Origin: Escherichia coli
Lineage (GTDB): Bacteria; Pseudomonadota; Gammaproteobacteria; Enterobacterales; Enterobacteriaceae
Strand: one strand, 5' to 3'
NCBI RefSeq assembly: GCF_003334405.1
Contig: NZ_QOWM01000010.1
Length of the DNA stretch: 64,000 bases
A program made the translations under genes and the position numbers. Shown in pieces: positions 2,923 to 58,936 of the stretch. Within the stretch, counting starts at the first letter, position 1, and each line of letters begins with the position of its first letter. The notes under the pieces are model-generated. The model had not been told where the DNA came from. It searched no databases and was given only the letters and a program-made list of their open reading frames with translations.

Positions 2923-3605
2923 GCTTCCTCCTGCAACTGCCCGTTCACCAGCCGTAAGCAGCGGTCGCAGCGTGCCGCCAGTTGCAGGTCGTGGGTCACC
3001 ATAATCAACGTGGTGCCATGTTCACGGTTGAGGGAAAACAGCAGGTCGGCAATTTTATCGCCCGTCTGGCGGTCAAGGTTGCCGGTGGGTTCGTCGGCAA
3101 ACAGCACATCAGGTCGACCATTAAAGGCTCGTGCCAGCGCCACTCGTTGCTGTTCACCGCCGGAAAGCTGTGCCGGAAGATGATCCAGACGTTTACCCAG
3201 CCCTAACTGTTCGAGCAACGCTTTCGCCCCGTTACGACTTTCCGCGCTACTCTCACCGCGCAGCAGAGCCGGAAGCTCGACGTTTTCCAGCGCGTTAAGG
3301 GTAGGAATTAACATAAATGACTGAAAAACAAAGCCGACGTGCTTCGCGCGCAACTTTGCCCGCGCTTCTTCGTCCATATTATGTAGCGGTTGTCCCACCA
3401 GACTCACTTCGCCACTGCTGCCGTCATCAAGCCCGGCGAGGATCGCCAGCAAGGTTGACTTACCCGATCCCGACTCGCCCACCAGTGCGATGGTCTCGCC
3501 ACGTTTGACAACCAGCTCAACTCCGGTGAGGATGGAGAGTTCATGCTCCCCCTGACCGACGGACTTCTTAAGATGATGAACTTCAACAATGTTTTCCGCT
3601 GGCAT
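2919..3605 (-). CDS. ybbA: ABC transporter ATP-binding protein, 228 aa
   Basis: ORF track 228 aa with Walker A GESGSGKST, ABC signature LSGGEQQR and Walker B DVLFADEP. Confidence 0.95.
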   Translation of the reverse strand: MPAENIVEVHHLKKSVGQGEHELSILTGVELVVKRGETIALVGESGSGKSTLLAILAGLDDGSSGEVSLVGQPLHNMDEEARAKLRAKHVGFVFQSFMLIPTLNALENVELPALLRGESSAESRNGAKALLEQLGLGKRLDHLPAQLSGGEQQRVALARAFNGRPDVLFADEPTGNLDRQTGDKIADLLFSLNREHGTTLIMVTHDLQLAARCDRCLRLVNGQLQEEA

Positions 3606-4199
3606 TTGCCCTTCCTGTTCCTGGTCCTGTTAACCTTCCGTGCCGCCGCAGCGGACACGTTATTGATTCTGGGTGATAGCCTGAGCGCCGGGTATCGAAT
3701 GTCTGCCAGCGCGGCCTGGCCTGCCTTGTTGAATGATAAGTGGCAGAGTAAAACGTCGGTAGTTAATGCCAGCATCAGCGGCGACACCTCGCAACAAGGA
3801 CTGGCGCGCCTTCCGGCTCTGCTGAAACAGCATCAGCCGCGTTGGGTGCTGGTTGAACTGGGCGGCAATGACGGTTTGCGTGGTTTTCAGCCACAGCAAA
3901 CCGAGCAAACGCTGCGCCAGATTTTGCAGGATGTCAAAGCCGCCAACGCTGAACCATTGTTAATGCAAATACGTCTGCCTGCAAACTATGGTCGCCGTTA
4001 TAATGAAGCCTTTAGCGCCATTTACCCCAAACTCGCCAAAGAGTTTGATGTTCCGCTGCTGCCCTTTTTTATGGAAGAGGTCTACCTCAAGCCACAATGG
4101 ATGCAGGATGACGGTATTCATCCCAACCGCGACGCCCAGCCGTTTATTGCCGACTGGATGGCGAAGCAGTTGCAGCCTTTAGTAAATCATGACTCATAA
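3573..4199 (+). CDS. tesA: Multifunctional acyl-CoA thioesterase I / protease I / lysophospholipase L1 (SGNH hydrolase), 208 aa
   Basis: ORF track 3543..4199; trimmed to the internal ATG at 3573 giving MMNFNNVFRW, a signal peptide, and the GDSLSAGY catalytic motif. 5' end overlaps the ybbA start on the opposite strand. Confidence 0.93.
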   Translation: MMNFNNVFRWHLPFLFLVLLTFRAAAADTLLILGDSLSAGYRMSASAAWPALLNDKWQSKTSVVNASISGDTSQQGLARLPALLKQHQPRWVLVELGGNDGLRGFQPQQTEQTLRQILQDVKAANAEPLLMQIRLPANYGRRYNEAFSAIYPKLAKEFDVPLLPFFMEEVYLKPQWMQDDGIHPNRDAQPFIADWMAKQLQPLVNHDS

Positions 4200-4998
4200 A
4201 GCAACGGAGATCCTGACAGGTAAAGTTATGCAAAAATCGGTCTTAATTACCGGATGTTCCAGTGGAATTGGCCTGGAAAGCGCGCTCGAATTAAAACGCC
4301 AGGGTTTTCATGTGCTGGCAGGTTGCCGGAAACCGGATGATGTTGAGCGCATGAACAGCATGGGATTTACCGGCGTGTTGATCGATCTGGATTCACCAGA
4401 AAGTGTTGATCGCGCAGCCGACGAGGTGATCGCCCTGACCGATAATTGTCTGTATGGGATCTTTAACAATGCCGGATTCGGCATGTATGGCCCCCTTTCC
4501 ACCATCAGCCGTGCGCAGATGGAACAGCAGTTTTCCGCCAACTTTTTCGGCGCACACCAGCTCACCATGCGCCTGTTACCCGCGATGTTACCGCACGGTG
4601 AAGGGCGTATTGTGATGACATCATCGGTGATGGGATTAATCTCCACGCCGGGTCGTGGCGCTTACGCGGCCAGTAAATATGCGCTGGAGGCGTGGTCAGA
4701 CGCACTGCGCATGGAGCTGCGCCACAGCGGAATTAAAGTCAGCCTGATCGAACCCGGTCCCATTCGTACTCGCTTCACCGACAACGTCAACCAGACGCAA
4801 AGTGATAAACCAGTCGAAAATCCCGGCATCGCCGCCCGCTTTACGTTGGGACCGGAAGCGGTGGTGGACAAAGTACGCCATGCTTTTATTAGCGAGAAGC
4901 CGAAGATGCGCTATCCGGTGACGCTGGTGACCTGGGCGGTAATGGTGCTTAAGCGCCTGCTGCCGGGGCGCGTGATGGACAAAATATTGCAGGGGTGA
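4189..4998 (+). CDS. ybbO: Short-chain dehydrogenase/reductase (NAD(P)-binding), 269 aa
   Basis: ORF track 269 aa; Rossmann motif TGCSSGIG and SDR catalytic YAASK. Start overlaps the tesA 3' end by 11 nt. Confidence 0.93.
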   Translation: MTHKATEILTGKVMQKSVLITGCSSGIGLESALELKRQGFHVLAGCRKPDDVERMNSMGFTGVLIDLDSPESVDRAADEVIALTDNCLYGIFNNAGFGMYGPLSTISRAQMEQQFSANFFGAHQLTMRLLPAMLPHGEGRIVMTSSVMGLISTPGRGAYAASKYALEAWSDALRMELRHSGIKVSLIEPGPIRTRFTDNVNQTQSDKPVENPGIAARFTLGPEAVVDKVRHAFISEKPKMRYPVTLVTWAVMVLKRLLPGRVMDKILQG

Positions 4999-5016
4999 GT
5001 TGAAGCGCGCGCTTAA

Positions 5017-5913
<897 letters not shown>

Positions 5914-5942
5914 TATTCCGTTGATCGGCACATGAACCACAA

Positions 5943-5968
5943 CGCCGGATGCGATGCTGCGCATCCGG
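5943..5968. terminator. REP-like GC-rich hairpin between convergent cnoX and fetB (probable bidirectional terminator)
   Basis: Inverted repeat gccggatgcg ... cgcatccggc read directly in the sequence between two convergent stop codons. Confidence 0.6.
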
Positions 5969-5975
5969 CATCGCA

Positions 5976-6755
5976 TCATTTCTTCTTCAATTGCGTCACC
6001 ACCAACTGGTGGCGCGAATTATAAAACTTACGATAGGTTAAATAGCAGGCAATAATGGTCGACAAGCTGGCGGTTGAGAGCAGCATAAAGGTCACCATAA
6101 TCTGATATTTAATCGCCTTCACCGGATCAATCCCGGCAAATATCAGCCCGGACATCATTCCTGGTAAACTCACTAAGCCAACCGTTTTTGCTGAATCGAC
6201 CGTCGGAATTAAAGCCGCGCGAATACTGTCGCGAATCAATATCGCTGAAGCCTGCTTCGGCGTCGCACCAAGACTCAGTTTCTCCTGAATCTGTTGCTGT
6301 TCGCTAATGACCCGTTGCCCTAAATTGTTGTAACACAACCCCACCGCTACCATGGCGTTACCGGCAATCATCCCGGCGATAGGGATCACCTGCATCGGGA
6401 TAAATTCAATCGACCCTGAGAGAATCAGCACCGCCAGGGTAATTCCCGCCCCGACCGTAATGGCAATAAACGATGAGATAAAAGCTTTAGCAATATATTT
6501 ACTGCGTTTTTGCGCGTTCCACGCCGCATTAAAGCAGATAAATAACACCATCAATAATGTCAGGCTGGCATCATCCACGCTGAAAATATACTTCAGCACA
6601 TAGCCGACAATAATCAGCTGAATTATCGCTCGCCCGACGCTCCAGAGAATATCTTTCTCCAGCGCCAGTTTTTCTTTATGGCTAATTAAGATTGCCACCA
6701 CCACCAGCATTAATGCCAGTGCTAATGATTCGTTAGTAATATTATGCGAGTTCAT
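5976..6755 (-). CDS. fetB: Iron-export ABC transporter permease, 259 aa
   Basis: ORF track 5976..6782; trimmed to the ATG at 6755 (MNSHNITNESLALA...). Polytopic membrane protein; its start overlaps the fetA stop. Confidence 0.9.
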   Translation of the reverse strand: MNSHNITNESLALALMLVVVAILISHKEKLALEKDILWSVGRAIIQLIIVGYVLKYIFSVDDASLTLLMVLFICFNAAWNAQKRSKYIAKAFISSFIAITVGAGITLAVLILSGSIEFIPMQVIPIAGMIAGNAMVAVGLCYNNLGQRVISEQQQIQEKLSLGATPKQASAILIRDSIRAALIPTVDSAKTVGLVSLPGMMSGLIFAGIDPVKAIKYQIMVTFMLLSTASLSTIIACYLTYRKFYNSRHQLVVTQLKKK

Positions 6756-54496: not shown

Positions 54497-54955
54497 TTAT
54501 TCGATGGGTAAAGAAGTGGTGTATTTAATCTGTTCCATCGCGAAGCTGGAAGTGACGTCCGACAGCCCCGGCACGCTGTTTACCAGACGCTTATAAAACT
54601 CGTCGTAGCGTTTCATGTCGGCAACCTGGACGCGCATCAGATAATCGTATTCACCAGCCATGCGCCAGAACCCCAGCACTTCTGGCATTTCGGTAACCAC
54701 CGTGACAAAGCGGCAATACCATTCGCTGCTGTGATGTTGCGTTTTTATCAGCACAAAAGCGGTCAGGCCGAGGCCTATTTTTTCCGGATCCAGCAGGGCG
54801 ACTTTGCCGATAAGGATACCGTCGTCCTCCAGCCGTTTCAGGCGCTTCCAGCAAGGGGTGGTTGTCAGATTAACGGCTTCAGCCAGTGCCTGCAAAGAGA
54901 GGGTGCAATCCTGCTGCAGTAAGGCCAGCAGCTTACGGTCAATTTTATCTAACAT
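54497..54955 (-). CDS. decR: Lrp/AsnC-family transcriptional regulator, 152 aa
   Basis: ORF track 54497..55183; trimmed to the ATG at 54953..54955 ([31 protein letters not shown]..., HTH plus RAM domain). Confidence 0.9.
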
Positions 54956-55107
54956 AGCCCTTCCACAGAGAATTTTTTTCTCTTTTAATTTTATTTTAAA
55001 GGTGAAATCACGACAATTTATTCTGTGCGGTTTAAACACCACGGCACAAAATGACAAATTCAACGCAAAAAAAACCGGGCAATTGCCCGGTGCTGGAAGG
55101 GATCTCG

Positions 55108-55926
55108 TTATTCGGGGGAATAAGGTAGATGTGGATAGTCCAGCCAGTGCGTCAAATAGTGAGAGACAGCCTGATTTCGGCAATGTCCAATCACCGGTAA
55201 ATGCGGGAGCTCCGCGCGCAGTTGCGGCATCGCATTGCCCATAATAAATCCGCTACCGACGCTGACTAACATTTCGCGATCGTTCATCGCATCACCAAAG
55301 GCCATGCAATCGCGCAACGATAAACCTAAATGTTGGGTCAGCACCGTCAATGCAGCGCCTTTATTGCAGCCCACCGGCAGCACTTCGAGGCAATCCGTGG
55401 CGGAAAAACACAAATGTGCACGCTCGCCTAATGCTTCGTATAGCTGGATCTGCAAGCGTGTAAGATCGTCGTGATCGCCACAGAAGCAGATCTTGGTGAC
55501 GCTGCCGAGTGGCATTTTTTTGACATCGATTATCTGATAACGAAAACCGCTATAGACAAATGCCTGCAACAACGCAGGGATCTCTTTCCCGGTAAACCAA
55601 CCGTCGTCATTGAAGATATGCATGCTGGCTCGGGTATCCCATTGCTGATACAGCACCAGCTCCGCGACATCCGCAGGTAAATCATCACGATGTAAAAGTT
55701 CACCTTCCAGAGAATGCACGCGCGTTCCGTTGCCGGTAATCAAATACGCATCCAGCGATAGCGCCCCGAGAATATGCTGCATCTCCAGCGCATGACGCCC
55801 CGTGGCAAAAGTGAGGGTAATGTCGCGTTCACGCAGTCGCGCCAAAGTAGAGAGGGTTTTCTCACCTAAATGATGGTCAGGCATCAATAAAGTGCCATCC
55901 ATATCAAATGCTGCCAGACGAGCCAT
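55108..55926 (-). CDS. cof: HAD-superfamily phosphatase (HMP-PP phosphatase Cof), 272 aa
   Basis: ORF track 55108..55938; trimmed to the ATG at 55926 ([17 protein letters not shown] motif I DxDGT). Confidence 0.92.
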
Positions 55927-56025
55927 TTCTTTCTCCACTCTGTGACACGGTTAATGGTGATTGAGTATCACCTGATATATACGGAAGTAATAGTGAATAG
56001 TTAAATAATATTGTTCCGGGTTTAT

Positions 56026-57726
56026 ATGCGATTGCTCAACCGTCTTAACCAGTATCAACGTCTGTGGCAACCTTCCGCCGGAAAGCCGCAAACCGTCACC
56101 GTCAGCGAACTGGCCGAACGCTGTTTTTGCAGCGAACGCCATGTTCGTACGCTGTTGCGTCAGGCACAGGAGGCGGGATGGCTGGAGTGGCAGGCGCAGT
56201 CAGGACGCGGAAAGCGCGGACAATTACGCTTTCTGGTCACGCCGGAATCGCTACGCAATGCGATGATGGAACAGGCACTGGAAACCGGAAAGCAGCAAGA
56301 TGTGCTGGAGCTGGCGCAACTGGCCCCAGGTGAGCTGCGCACTCTGTTACAGCCGTTTATGGGCGGACAATGGCAAAACGATACACCCACGTTGCGTATT
56401 CCCTACTATCGCCCGCTCGAACCGCTACAACCAGGCTTTTTGCCCGGCCGTGCCGAGCAGCATCTCGCCGGGCAGATATTTTCCGGCCTGACCCGCTTCG
56501 ATAATAATACTCAGCGCCCGATTGGCGATTTAGCGCATCACTGGGAAACCTCTACTGACGGGTTACGCTGGGACTTTTATCTTCGTTCAACCCTACACTG
56601 GCATAACGGCGATGCAGTAAAAGCCTCACACTTACACCAGCGATTATTGATGCTGTTACAACTGCCAGCACTGGATCAATTATTTATTAGCGTGAAGCGT
56701 ATTGAAGTCACCCATCCGCAGTGTCTGACCTTCTTTTTACATCGCCCTGATTACTGGCTTGCGCACCGGCTGGCGAGCTATTGCAGCCATCTGGCGCATC
56801 CGCAATTCCCACTGATCGGCACGGGTCCTTTTCGCTTAACACAATTCACAGCAGAGCTGGTGCGCCTGGAAAGCCATGATTATTACCATTTACGTCATCC
56901 GCTGCTTAAAGCGGTTGAGTACTGGATAACTCCGCCGCTTTTCGAAAAAGATTTGGGAACCAGTTGTCGGCATCCCGTGCAAATCACCATCGGCAAACCG
57001 GAGGAGCTGCAACGGGTCAGCCAGGTCAGTAGCGGCATCAGTTTAGGTTTTTGCTATTTGACGTTGCGCAAAAGTCCCCGACTCTCCCTCTGGCAGGCGC
57101 GAAAAGTGATCTCCATTATTCATCAATCCGGTTTATTACAAACGTTAGAAGTCGGAGAAAACCTGATCACCGCCAGTCATGCATTACTGCCAGGCTGGAC
57201 TATTCCGCATTGGCAGGTACCGGATGAAGTCAAACTACCGAAAACCTTGACGCTGGTTTATCACCTACCGATAGAACTTCATACCATGGCAGAACGCCTA
57301 CAGGCGACACTGGCAGCGGAAGGCTGTGAACTCACAATTATTTTTCATAACGCAAAAAACTGGGACGACACGACCCTACAGGCACACGCAGACCTCATGA
57401 TGGGCGACAGATTAATTGGCGAAGCACCGGAATATACTCTGGAGCAATGGCTGCGCTGCGATCCGCTGTGGCCACATGTTTTCGACGCTCCAGCATACGC
57501 ACATCTACAATCGACACTGGATGCCGTGCAAATAATGCCTGATGAAGAAAACCGATTTAATGCCCTGAAAGCGGTTTTTAGCCAGTTAATGACAGATGCG
57601 ACGCTGACGCCGCTGTTCAACTATCACTATCGCATTAGTGCCCCTCCCGGCGTGAACGGTGTGCGACTGACACCGCGCGGCTGGTTTGAATTTACCGAAG
57701 CCTGGCTTCCCGCGCCATCGCAATGA
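56026..57726 (+). CDS. ybaE: SgrR-like putative transcriptional regulator: N-terminal winged-helix domain fused to a solute-binding-protein (family 5) domain, 566 aa
   Basis: ORF track 56011..57726 begins at a TTG; start moved to the ATG at 56026 (MRLLNRLNQYQRLWQ...). N-terminal segment TVSELAERCFCSERHVRTLLRQAQEAGWLEWQAQSGRGKRGQLRF resembles a winged-helix DNA-binding module; there is no signal peptide. Confidence 0.85.
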   Translation: MRLLNRLNQYQRLWQPSAGKPQTVTVSELAERCFCSERHVRTLLRQAQEAGWLEWQAQSGRGKRGQLRFLVTPESLRNAMMEQALETGKQQDVLELAQLAPGELRTLLQPFMGGQWQNDTPTLRIPYYRPLEPLQPGFLPGRAEQHLAGQIFSGLTRFDNNTQRPIGDLAHHWETSTDGLRWDFYLRSTLHWHNGDAVKASHLHQRLLMLLQLPALDQLFISVKRIEVTHPQCLTFFLHRPDYWLAHRLASYCSHLAHPQFPLIGTGPFRLTQFTAELVRLESHDYYHLRHPLLKAVEYWITPPLFEKDLGTSCRHPVQITIGKPEELQRVSQVSSGISLGFCYLTLRKSPRLSLWQARKVISIIHQSGLLQTLEVGENLITASHALLPGWTIPHWQVPDEVKLPKTLTLVYHLPIELHTMAERLQATLAAEGCELTIIFHNAKNWDDTTLQAHADLMMGDRLIGEAPEYTLEQWLRCDPLWPHVFDAPAYAHLQSTLDAVQIMPDEENRFNALKAVFSQLMTDATLTPLFNYHYRISAPPGVNGVRLTPRGWFEFTEAWLPAPSQ

Positions 57727-57790
57727 ATAGCTGGTCCGGGTTAATCGCAGGCGTTACCATAACGCTTTTATTGTTCAAGCAGGATTATCT

Positions 57791-58486
57791 ATGAAACGTG
57801 CTGTCGTTGTGTTCAGTGGAGGTCAGGATTCCACCACCTGTCTGGTGCAGGCATTACAACAATATGATGAAGTCCATTGCGTGACGTTCGATTACGGTCA
57901 GCGGCATCGCGCAGAAATCGACGTGGCACGCGAACTGGCGCTGAAACTGGGGGCACGCGCGCATAAGGTGCTGGATGTCACCCTGCTCAACAAGCTGGCG
58001 GTCAGTAGCCTGACGCGTGACAGCATTCCGGTGCCTGATTATGAACCTGAAGCCGATGGTATCCCGAATACGTTTGTCCCAGGGCGTAATATTTTGTTCC
58101 TGACGCTGGCGGCAATATATGCGTATCAGGTAAAAGCAGAAGCCGTAATTACTGGCGTCTGCGAAACGGATTTCTCCGGCTACCCGGATTGCCGCGATGA
58201 GTTTGTGAAAGCACTAAACCATGCCGTCAGTTTGGGCATGGCGAAAGATATTCGTTTTGAAACGCCGCTGATGTGGATTGATAAAGCGGAAACCTGGGCG
58301 CTGGCAGATTATTACGGCAAACTGGATTTAGTCCGTAACGAAACGTTGACCTGCTATAACGGCTTTAAAGGCGACGGTTGCGGTCATTGTGCGGCATGTA
58401 ATTTACGCGCCAACGGTTTGAATCATTATCTGGCCGATAAACCGACGGTGATGGCAGCGATGAAGCAGAAAACCGGGTTGAGGTAA
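57791..58486 (+). CDS. queC: 7-cyano-7-deazaguanine synthase QueC, 231 aa
   Basis: ORF track 231 aa; PP-loop ATPase motif SGGQDSTT and a C-terminal zinc-binding cysteine cluster ([16 protein letters not shown]). Confidence 0.96.
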
Positions 58487-58500
58487 TTATTCCGGGTGTC

Positions 58501-58527
58501 GCCGGATGCGGCTTGAGCATCCGGCAC
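58501..58527. terminator. GC-rich hairpin between convergent queC and fadM (probable bidirectional terminator)
   Basis: gccggatgcggc-ttgag-catccggcac read directly between the two convergent stop codons. Confidence 0.6.
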
Positions 58528-58537
58528 CACAAAACGT

Positions 58538-58936
58538 TTACTTAACCATCTGCTCCAGCTTTTCGCGCAATTCCCCTTCCAGAGCTAATGCTTTCTGCGT
58601 TTTAAGATCAATACAAACAAACGTAATAAGCGCATCCGCTACCACCTGCCCTTCCGGCTCCAGTGTAATGACCTGGCTTAAGATGCCGCTTTTACCGTTT
58701 AATTGCTGCAACTGACTGGTAATAGTTAACAGGTCACTTAATACCGCTGGGCGACGATAGTTAATATTGATATTGACCACGACGAAGGCGATGTTATGGG
58801 CCGTCATCCACTGAAAACTGTCGCTATTTTCCAACCCATCCCAGCGGGCTTCTTCGAGAAATTCAAGGTAGCGGGCGTTGTTGACGTGCTGGTAAACGTC
58901 GAGATGATATCCACGAACTTTGATTTGTGTTTGCAT
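58538..58936 (-). CDS. fadM: Long-chain acyl-CoA thioesterase III (hotdog fold), 132 aa
   Basis: ORF track 132 aa; 4HBT hotdog thioesterase. Confidence 0.93.
   Translation of the reverse strand: MQTQIKVRGYHLDVYQHVNNARYLEFLEEARWDGLENSDSFQWMTAHNIAFVVVNININYRRPAVLSDLLTITSQLQQLNGKSGILSQVITLEPEGQVVADALITFVCIDLKTQKALALEGELREKLEQMVK

Follow-up and report, generated by a model that had tools for sequence, protein, structure and literature searches.

SgrR (YabN of Escherichia coli), a regulator of glucose-phosphate stress, is the closest described relative of the protein considered here; it also controls the distant gene alaC, and no ligand is known for it (PMC4021124). In their study of SgrR homologues, Horler and Vanderpool (2009; PMC2760817) assigned YbaE to clade 2, with a predicted functional helix-turn-helix (HTH), a feature missing in clades 5 and 7 only, and an unknown function; they also hypothesised that sgrR homologues act on the genes that lie divergent from them. 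Here, we analysed ybaE within a 64,000-nucleotide stretch of E. coli contig NZ_QOWM01000010.1 (assembly GCF_003334405.1), referred to as the window, whose numbering is used throughout. We found that YbaE is a paralogue of SgrR that joins a winged-helix head to a complete family-5 solute-binding-protein fold, and that a near-invariant 62-bp core separates its gene from the divergent phosphatase gene cof. Our main reading, to which we assign a probability of roughly 0.6, is that YbaE is a ligand-switched regulator that acts on this core, regulating itself and controlling cof.

The architecture is not new: it restates the 2009 paper and the current annotation, as RefSeq/PGAP gives the product the name 'SgrR family transcriptional regulator' across thousands of genomes. 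It does contradict an outdated 'periplasmic binding protein' label that persists in, and misleads, recent work (PMC5389662, 2017; PMC12147183, 2025). Expression of ybaE varies with physiological state: carbon limitation induces the gene in dependence on Crp-cAMP, although Crp did not bind the ybaE promoter (PMC6390033), and a comparison of biofilm flow regimes found 3.7-fold higher expression in one of them (PMC5389662). The Keio knockout of ybaE is resistant to the lacritin peptide N-104, in a study that labels the protein a 'periplasmic SgrR family member' (PMC12147183). YbaE is among the remaining E. coli K-12 transcription factors without a known signal or target.

YbaE joins a winged-helix head to a complete binding-protein fold

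A domain search assigned residues 7-119 of YbaE to Pfam SgrR_N (PF12793; model positions 3-115 of 115, E=5.3e-39) and residues 165-303 to SBP_bac_5 (PF00496; E=1.3e-16), the two domains that make up the SgrR family architecture, with marginal matches to Rrf2 and HTH_36 over residues 21-86. A preliminary description of this DNA, made from its letters and open reading frames (ORFs), had proposed this pairing, together with a winged helix spanning the N-terminal 100 or so residues, a remainder resembling peptide- or oligosaccharide-binding proteins and no signal peptide. The domain search recovered both domains, and a winged-helix module was indeed found at the N-terminus; what changed is its extent, as the winged helix proper covers residues 1-70 or so and is followed by a linker of three helices at residues 73-111.

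An AlphaFold2 model of YbaE, built with a 69-sequence alignment, had a mean predicted local distance difference test score (pLDDT) of 90.6 and a predicted template modelling (TM) score of 0.86. In this model, the winged helix comprises helix 1 (residues 2-14), a strand (22-24), helix 2 (26-33), helix 3 (37-49) and two wing strands (53-56 and 65-69). Helix 3 is the recognition helix, CSERHVRTLLRQ, and the wing carries an invariant GRG at residues 60-62. We also modelled the N-terminal 122 residues alone (pLDDT 83.9), and in both models the linker helices lie at residues 73-86, 90-97 and 101-111. They connect the DNA-binding head with the ligand-binding body, an alpha/beta domain formed by residues 113-566.

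In a Foldseek search of the Protein Data Bank (PDB), YbaE matched NikA, DppA, OppA, MppA, SapA and CntA over about 500-530 columns (E=7e-28 to 1e-23), and a family profile compared with PDB sequences retrieved the same binding proteins at E-values down to 2.6e-47 over profile positions 113-555. Because the structural and profile alignments both span the body, the whole binding-protein fold is present and extends beyond the 140 residues recognised by Pfam; the resemblance to peptide- and oligosaccharide-binding proteins anticipated by the preliminary description is therefore upheld at the level of the family-5 fold. The pocket residues did not lead us to a ligand: the invariant R129, E144, W182, H193 and D456 could not be mapped confidently onto known ligand contacts through the profile alignments.

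When the isolated head was searched with Foldseek, nearly all of the top 50 matches were MarR-family or other winged-helix DNA binders, all of them weak (E=1e-3 to 1e-2, TM-score about 0.4) and including the operator-bound ROK repressor 5f7q (root-mean-square deviation of 3.1 Å over 71 columns) and the AspA-DNA complex 5k5q. No SgrR-family member was found among the solved PDB structures. The head is the most conserved part of the protein among 63 YbaE orthologues, at 0.83 compared with 0.68 for the C-terminal half, and its family-invariant residues are R38 in the recognition helix, W52, W55 and the wing residues G60-R61-G62. Pfam SgrR_N and the winged-helix model both indicate a domain of DNA-binding type at the N-terminus, as had been proposed, and YbaE is probably a DNA-binding regulator.

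We next looked for the features of an exported protein and observed none. The first 60 residues contain no hydrophobic run of at least 7 residues, and their highest 11-residue Kyte-Doolittle mean is 0.57; the most hydrophobic 19-residue segment anywhere in the protein scores 1.12, and motif heuristics detected neither a lipobox nor a twin-arginine motif. By these hydropathy and motif heuristics, which were used rather than SignalP or another trained predictor, YbaE unambiguously lacks an export signal, in line with the preliminary description and in agreement with the folded helix that AlphaFold places at residues 2-14. Collectively, YbaE is almost certainly a cytoplasmic fusion of a winged helix with a family-5 solute-binding protein.

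YbaE is a paralogue of SgrR

The best NCBIfam model for YbaE is the SgrR equivalog NF010149, which aligns to residues 8-564 with 231.9 bits against a cutoff of 476 and is followed by weaker matches to NikA, OppA, DppA and SapA; by comparison, a Rahnella protein (locus L075 in our numbering) scores 546.8 bits on the same model. BLASTP aligned YbaE with the SgrR of the same strain over its full length at 27% identity (E=2e-54). On account of this identity and of a score of 232 bits against the 476-bit cutoff, YbaE is, as judged from sequence, a paralogue of SgrR within one family and not its orthologue. The surroundings agree with the scores: SgrR proper is expected beside divergent sgrS/sgrT and in synteny with thiB, whereas ybaE has cof as its divergent neighbour and decR and queC nearby. 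In this strain, the true sgrR locus is at another site, together with sgrT, setA and thiB.

A near-invariant 62-bp core lies between cof and ybaE

We aligned 56 distinct cof-ybaE intergenic sequences from about 20 genera and observed a block that reaches the ybaE ATG, with the pattern AGTAT..CCTG..ATATACGGAAgTAATAgTGAATA..T.......ATTGTTCCGGGTTT (window 55964-56022). Mean column identity is 0.86 in the core, with long runs at or above 0.95, compared with 0.55 in the cof-proximal part of the spacer and 0.60 in the ybaE-queC spacer. The identity of the YbaE protein drops to 56% across genomes that keep the core, and a 46%-identity orthologue retains GCGGAACTAATAGTGAA and GTGTTCAGGATTT from it. 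Within the core lies an inverted repeat, CGGAA(G/C)-N25-GTTCCG. In E. coli genomes the core carries no annotation and occurs once (median of 1 place per genome), so that a second copy pointing to the regulon was ruled out.

We also considered, and rejected, an RNA element located in the ybaE leader: no Rfam match was obtained in the core or leader at E<=1, and the folds, on either strand, scored z +0.4 to +0.7 relative to shuffled sequences. On the minus strand, the invariant ATACT could plausibly serve cof as a weak -10 element, as might be expected of a promoter that depends on an activator. E. coli also has a perfect inverted repeat, GGTGAT-N5-ATCACC (window 55956-55972), which overlaps the invariant AGTAT and resembles a pair of CRP half-sites with non-canonical spacing; it is probably not the conserved element, because it is just partly kept in other genera.

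Similar repeats accompany several SgrR-family clades

We compared the control regions of cof-ybaE and sgrR-sgrS with the alaC promoter. In the orientation of the regulator gene, the sequence is GGGAAA-N26-GTTCCCCTTTTATG at sgrR and CGGAAG-N25-GTTCCGGGTTTATATG at ybaE, and the repeat of each ends some 10 nt ahead of the ATG. If up to one mismatch is allowed, a GGAAC-N20-30-GTTCC repeat begins at position -43 relative to the ybaE ATG and at -42 relative to that of sgrR, against a background of 13 such repeats per 64 kb, or about 0.04 per 200 bp. In E. coli, Pantoea, Erwinia and Rahnella alike, a GTTCC precedes the sgrR ATG by 7-11 nt; GTTCCTCTTTTATG precedes the starts of Pantoea and Erwinia sgrR and of the Rahnella gene whose product scores 546.8 bits as SgrR. 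In addition, CAGAGTTCCTCATTT at alaC resembles CAGGAGTTCCCCTTTT at sgrR.

A third clade (protein cluster P0124, 37% identity; L080:4890-4945 and L081) has a perfect CAGGAAC-N24-GTTCCTG 93 nt upstream of its SgrR-family gene. This gene follows a phosphotransferase system (PTS) EIICB gene, and its 7-bp repeat is the cleanest candidate operator that we saw in the family. The repeat-bearing clades have a common recognition helix, CS(E/R)RH(V/M)RTL, while four clades with an RHxxN(L/V) helix are without the repeat. A family-wide GGAAC-N-GTTCC operator is rejected as universal, because three clades have the repeat and others do not; a widely spaced GGAAC/GTTCC design common to some clades is suggestive but not established.

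Conservation of the locus and the partner gene cof

A scan with one genome per species yielded 74 loci. The order mdlA(-) decR(-) cof(-) / ybaE(+) queC(+) fadM(-) ybaV(-) is kept in every locus with at least 56% identity, from Escherichia to Erwinia and Winslowiella, and the divergent cof-ybaE pairing is kept in all orthologue loci, with a spacer of 97-103 bp in 46 of 65 (typically about 99 bp). The 46%-identity orthologue, in a 3.5-Mb genome, retains cof / ybaE-queC and has lost mdlAB. Linkage to cof beyond the orthologue group was sought and found to be lost at 39% identity and below; the link is a property of the orthologue group only, because relatives at 34-39% identity have unrelated neighbours. 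Those neighbours are two GFO/IDH/MocA oxidoreductases, a PTS EIICB gene, a TetR gene or fimbrial loci.

Some of the contexts of SgrR-family genes are far from sugar metabolism. Two tandem members (5001-6677 and 7131-8795 of L083; also L085) lie in a chaperone-usher fimbrial locus with a GerE/LuxR regulator, and another (L087:784-2442) lies near the type VI secretion genes vipA/vipB. In the eroding symbiont Candidatus Pantoea persica (L068:5369-7330), cof and ybaE are fragmented while the flanking queC and mdlA are intact, a case that is consistent with joint loss of cof and ybaE and is a single anecdote.

Cof scores 554 bits on the NCBIfam equivalog NF011705 for hydroxymethylpyrimidine pyrophosphate (HMP-PP) phosphatase, against a cutoff of 336, and its next-best family, at 222 bits, is the sugar/pyridoxal-phosphate phosphatase YigL. 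In 2013, Papenfort et al. reportedly described YigL as a phosphatase that SgrS up-regulates in sugar-phosphate stress. A paralogous regulator thus stands beside a paralogous phosphatase, an arrangement that prompts us to hypothesise direct control of cof by YbaE in response to a phosphorylated metabolite. The two SgrR-family paralogues of E. coli each adjoin thiamine-related genes: sgrR adjoins the thiBPQ thiamine transporter operon with its thiamine pyrophosphate riboswitch (L076:645-2433), and ybaE adjoins cof, which encodes a thiamine-precursor phosphatase. This may be coincidence.

Gene identity, start codon and other features of the region

The features of the region are collected in Table 1. 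The plus-strand ORF in the list for the window runs from 56011 to 57726, with an in-frame ATG at 56026, and the ybaE coding sequence (CDS) of RefSeq strain 720632 (4027..5727 of its locus, in which position 3001 equals window position 55000) corresponds exactly to 56026..57726. In several genera, a 2-nt deletion just 5' of the ATG puts the upstream TTG out of frame while MRLL... is kept, so the ATG at 56026, and not the TTG, is the true start. When 55000-58600 was compared by megablast with 5426 complete E. coli genomes, 5425 gave a match, in many cases at 100% identity; they annotate the region as cof, ybaE ('SgrR family transcriptional regulator'), queC and fadM; ybaE itself is covered to at least 80% in 5369 of the 5426. 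In strain 720632, mdlB-mdlA-decR-cof lie on the opposite strand and queC (57791..58486, plus strand), co-oriented with ybaE, begins 64 nt downstream. The coordinates and identity of the gene, its divergence from cof and its place directly upstream of queC had all been given correctly in the preliminary description.

Table 1 Features of the cof-ybaE-queC region, with positions in the window
Feature	Position	Strand	Evidence or remark
Winged helix-turn-helix, residues 1-70	56026..56235	+	Pfam SgrR_N, AlphaFold, Foldseek, invariant residues
Three-helix linker, residues 73-111, inside Pfam SgrR_N	56242..56358	+	Both AlphaFold models
Complete family-5 (cluster C) solute-binding-protein fold, residues ~113-566, presumed effector-binding	56362..57723	+	Pfam, Foldseek, profile
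Near-invariant 62-bp core, candidate YbaE operator and overlapping divergent promoters	55964..56025	.	Alignment; column identity
Candidate left half-site CGGAAG, which many genera have as CGGAAC; invariant TAATAGTGAATA comes next	55982..55987	+	Alignment, repeat scan
Candidate right half-site GTTCCG, inverted relative to the left one across 25 nt, with its last base 8 nt before the ybaE ATG	56013..56018	+	Alignment
GATACT, candidate cof -10 hexamer	55964..55969	-	Conservation; ATACT invariant in all genera
ybaE CDS (566 codons and stop)	56026..57726	+	ORF; identical to RefSeq ybaE CDS
cof, HMP-PP phosphatase (Cof-type HAD-IIB), predicted target	55108..55926	-	NCBIfam equivalog NF011705; divergent from ybaE
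Hairpin and T-run, 23 nt after the ybaE stop, possible ybaE terminator	57749..57767	+	Overlaps conserved TACCATA, possible queC -10

The ybaE-queC spacer (57727-57790) carries AAGCTGGTCG-N~17-TACCATA, with fixed spacing in nearly all genera. The stem of its hairpin shows some compensatory changes, from GCGTTA/TAACGC to ACGCTA/TAGCGT. The hairpin stands too close to queC for a promoter to fit in between, and the block would therefore be either the queC promoter or a ybaE terminator or attenuator that queC transcripts pass.

Several variants of ybaE were encountered. The complete E. coli genome NZ_OW968288.1 has the gene interrupted by an insertion of the IS4-like ISVsa5, and protein cluster P0023 (305 sequences) is a 444-aa form of YbaE without the DNA-binding head; given these, ybaE is evidently dispensable and inactivated in some lineages. 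An 818-aa ORF call from a single Logan assembly (P0002) fuses the YbaE and QueC domains and is probably an assembly or frameshift artefact, because the 64-nt spacer is not a multiple of three. For decR/ybaO (window 54497-55183), the ORF list gives 228 aa from a TTG where RefSeq has 152 aa; the TTG extension overlaps the 3' end of cof, and its translation is almost certainly absent.

Discussion

We propose a model in which YbaE is a cytoplasmic one-component transcription factor whose family-5 body was recruited from transport as an intracellular ligand sensor. A dimer or higher oligomer of YbaE would bind the 62-bp core through the CGGAA(G/C)-N25-GTTCCG half-sites, and from there repress its own promoter and control the divergent cof promoter, with a small molecule in the cleft of the binding-protein domain switching its activity. 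Of the elements of this model, our analysis shows the domain architecture, the fold, the absence of export signals, the paralogy and the conservation of both synteny and intergenic core; we infer DNA binding at the core, regulation of cof and ybaE, and the nature of the effector. For action of YbaE at the core we see the odds as about even, and control of cof is put forward tentatively, as falling somewhat short of that. Since yigL, which encodes the phosphatase induced by the SgrR-SgrS circuit, has cof as its closest paralogue, the most plausible effector would be a phosphorylated metabolite that Cof removes when it is in excess; taken as a specific claim, a phosphorylated effector is unlikely.

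However, a number of results weigh against this model. The full-text papers searched that name ybaE assign it no effector or regulon, in keeping with the preliminary description, which had called both uncharacterised, and they contain no DNA-binding experiment or ligand for YbaE. A consensus promoter scan detected no canonical sigma-70 promoter in the cof-ybaE spacer, which fits an activator-dependent promoter without demonstrating one, and the conservation of the core could serve promoters or another regulator. Searched with nhmmer, a profile of the core of the YbaE clade matched that core alone (E=2e-18), with no match at sgrR-sgrS, at alaC or at the paralogue loci. To the eye, the control regions of cof-ybaE and sgrR-sgrS look collinear, but on this result their homology was rejected, and the resemblance to an SgrR operator is for that reason architectural only. 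The repeat is absent upstream of L072 (an SgrR orthologue), L075 (Rahnella SgrR), L079, L082, L083/L085 and L087 and from the alaC promoter, and the distance between its halves ranges from 22 to 26 nt. Finally, relatives at 34-39% identity adjoin genes other than cof, and because the whole neighbourhood is syntenic in Enterobacteriaceae, the adjacency of cof is weak evidence and not a specific signal.

Much of this bears on an alternative that we regard as doubtful, in which YbaE is a real SgrR-family factor with targets elsewhere, cof is a mere neighbour and the core is kept for promoters or another regulator. It would account for a core profile unlike the known SgrR-controlled promoters, for the low information content of adjacency within a syntenic mdlA-decR-cof-ybaE-queC-fadM block and for the unrelated neighbours of more distant relatives, and SgrR itself offers a precedent in its control of distant alaC. 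Set against it are the core's position abutting the ybaE start codon and the half-site type and start-codon offset common to ybaE and sgrR; moreover, divergently transcribed regulators very often autoregulate from the common spacer. It is very unlikely that YbaE mainly controls queC (queuosine precursor synthesis), by co-transcription or through the ybaE-queC spacer. The co-orientation of queC 64 nt downstream in nearly all orthologue loci, and the hairpin and conserved block in the spacer, speak for such control, but in Erwinia persicina queC lies about 3.4 kb from ybaE (L046, L069), the fixed-spacing block looks like an independent promoter, and the spacer lacks a GGAAC/GTTCC repeat. The sole similarity to the core nearby, at 58481-58497, is non-significant (E=6) and sits at the far end of queC, and the degraded symbiont genome keeps queC while ybaE and cof decay.

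Two further explanations concern the protein itself. That YbaE is a redundant or back-up SgrR in glucose-phosphate stress, acting on the sgrS and alaC promoters, would draw on the identical architecture, the very similar recognition helix and the GGAAC-type half-sites at both ybaE and sgrR. We judge it highly improbable: sgrR mutants are stress-defective despite the presence of ybaE (PMC4021124), sgrS/sgrT do not adjoin ybaE, and the protein has only 27% identity, a score below the SgrR equivalog cutoff and a divergent ligand-binding domain. The older annotation of YbaE as a periplasmic substrate-binding protein of an ATP-binding cassette (ABC) transporter (PMC5389662, PMC12147183), a name that some database entries keep (P0046, P0048, P0115), is close to untenable. 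Although a true family-5 binding-protein fold makes up the C-terminal 450 residues, the sequence contradicts this label, with signal peptide, lipobox and Tat motif all absent and the N-terminus occupied by a 110-residue winged-helix module; no importer permease or ATPase genes occur in the annotated 9.6-kb neighbourhood, and mdlAB, two genes away on the other strand, encode exporter-type fused ABC proteins.

If YbaE does act at the core, as in our preferred model, this would provide the first operator model for the SgrR family and tie a regulator to the poorly understood phosphatase Cof. The gain is a defined probe of 62 bp that contains two candidate half-sites, together with a single predicted target, cof; these make this orphan regulator directly testable. 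A bolder and improbable extension is that YbaE and Cof form a second metabolite-stress module, independent of small RNA (sRNA) and parallel to SgrR-SgrS-YigL, in which YbaE would sense, by means of its binding-protein body, a phosphorylated metabolite that over-accumulates, possibly a thiamine-pyrimidine or vitamin-B6-type phosphate, and directly activate cof from the 62-bp operator with its widely spaced GGAAC/GTTCC half-sites. Were this so, the design of that operator would be common to several SgrR-family clades and would be an unrecognised binding-site architecture of the family.

Comparison with known systems

SgrR and YbaE have the same modules in the same order, namely an SgrR_N winged helix, a helical linker and an SBP_bac_5 body. 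Their recognition helices are close (CSRRHMRTLL in SgrR, CSERHVRTLL in YbaE), their GRG wings are alike, and both genes are divergent from a presumed target gene. The divergent partner of SgrR is the sRNA gene sgrS/sgrT, whereas that of YbaE is the protein-coding phosphatase gene cof, and the two operator regions are not alignable by profile search. The effector domain of YbaE is divergent from that of SgrR, and its ligand is therefore probably different; unlike SgrR, YbaE has no phenotype that ties it to sugar-phosphate stress.

The binding proteins NikA, DppA, OppA, SapA and CntA have the same three-lobed fold as YbaE over about 500 residues (Foldseek E~1e-27, TM-score about 0.6-0.7), with profile-to-sequence E-values of 1e-47 to 1e-36 at an identity of just 14-18%. 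By contrast with these periplasmic family-5 proteins, YbaE has no export signal, an extra N-terminal DNA-binding module and no partner permease or ATPase genes. The topology of its head, helix 1-strand-helix 2-helix 3-wing, fits that of its best structural matches, the MarR family (HcaR, 4rgu) and the N-terminal domain of the ROK repressor 5f7q bound to its operator; these matches are weak (E~1e-3, TM-score about 0.4), and YbaE is without the MarR dimerisation helices. Whereas MarR senses its ligand in a pocket at the dimer interface, sensing by YbaE is presumed to take place in a separate domain of 450 residues.

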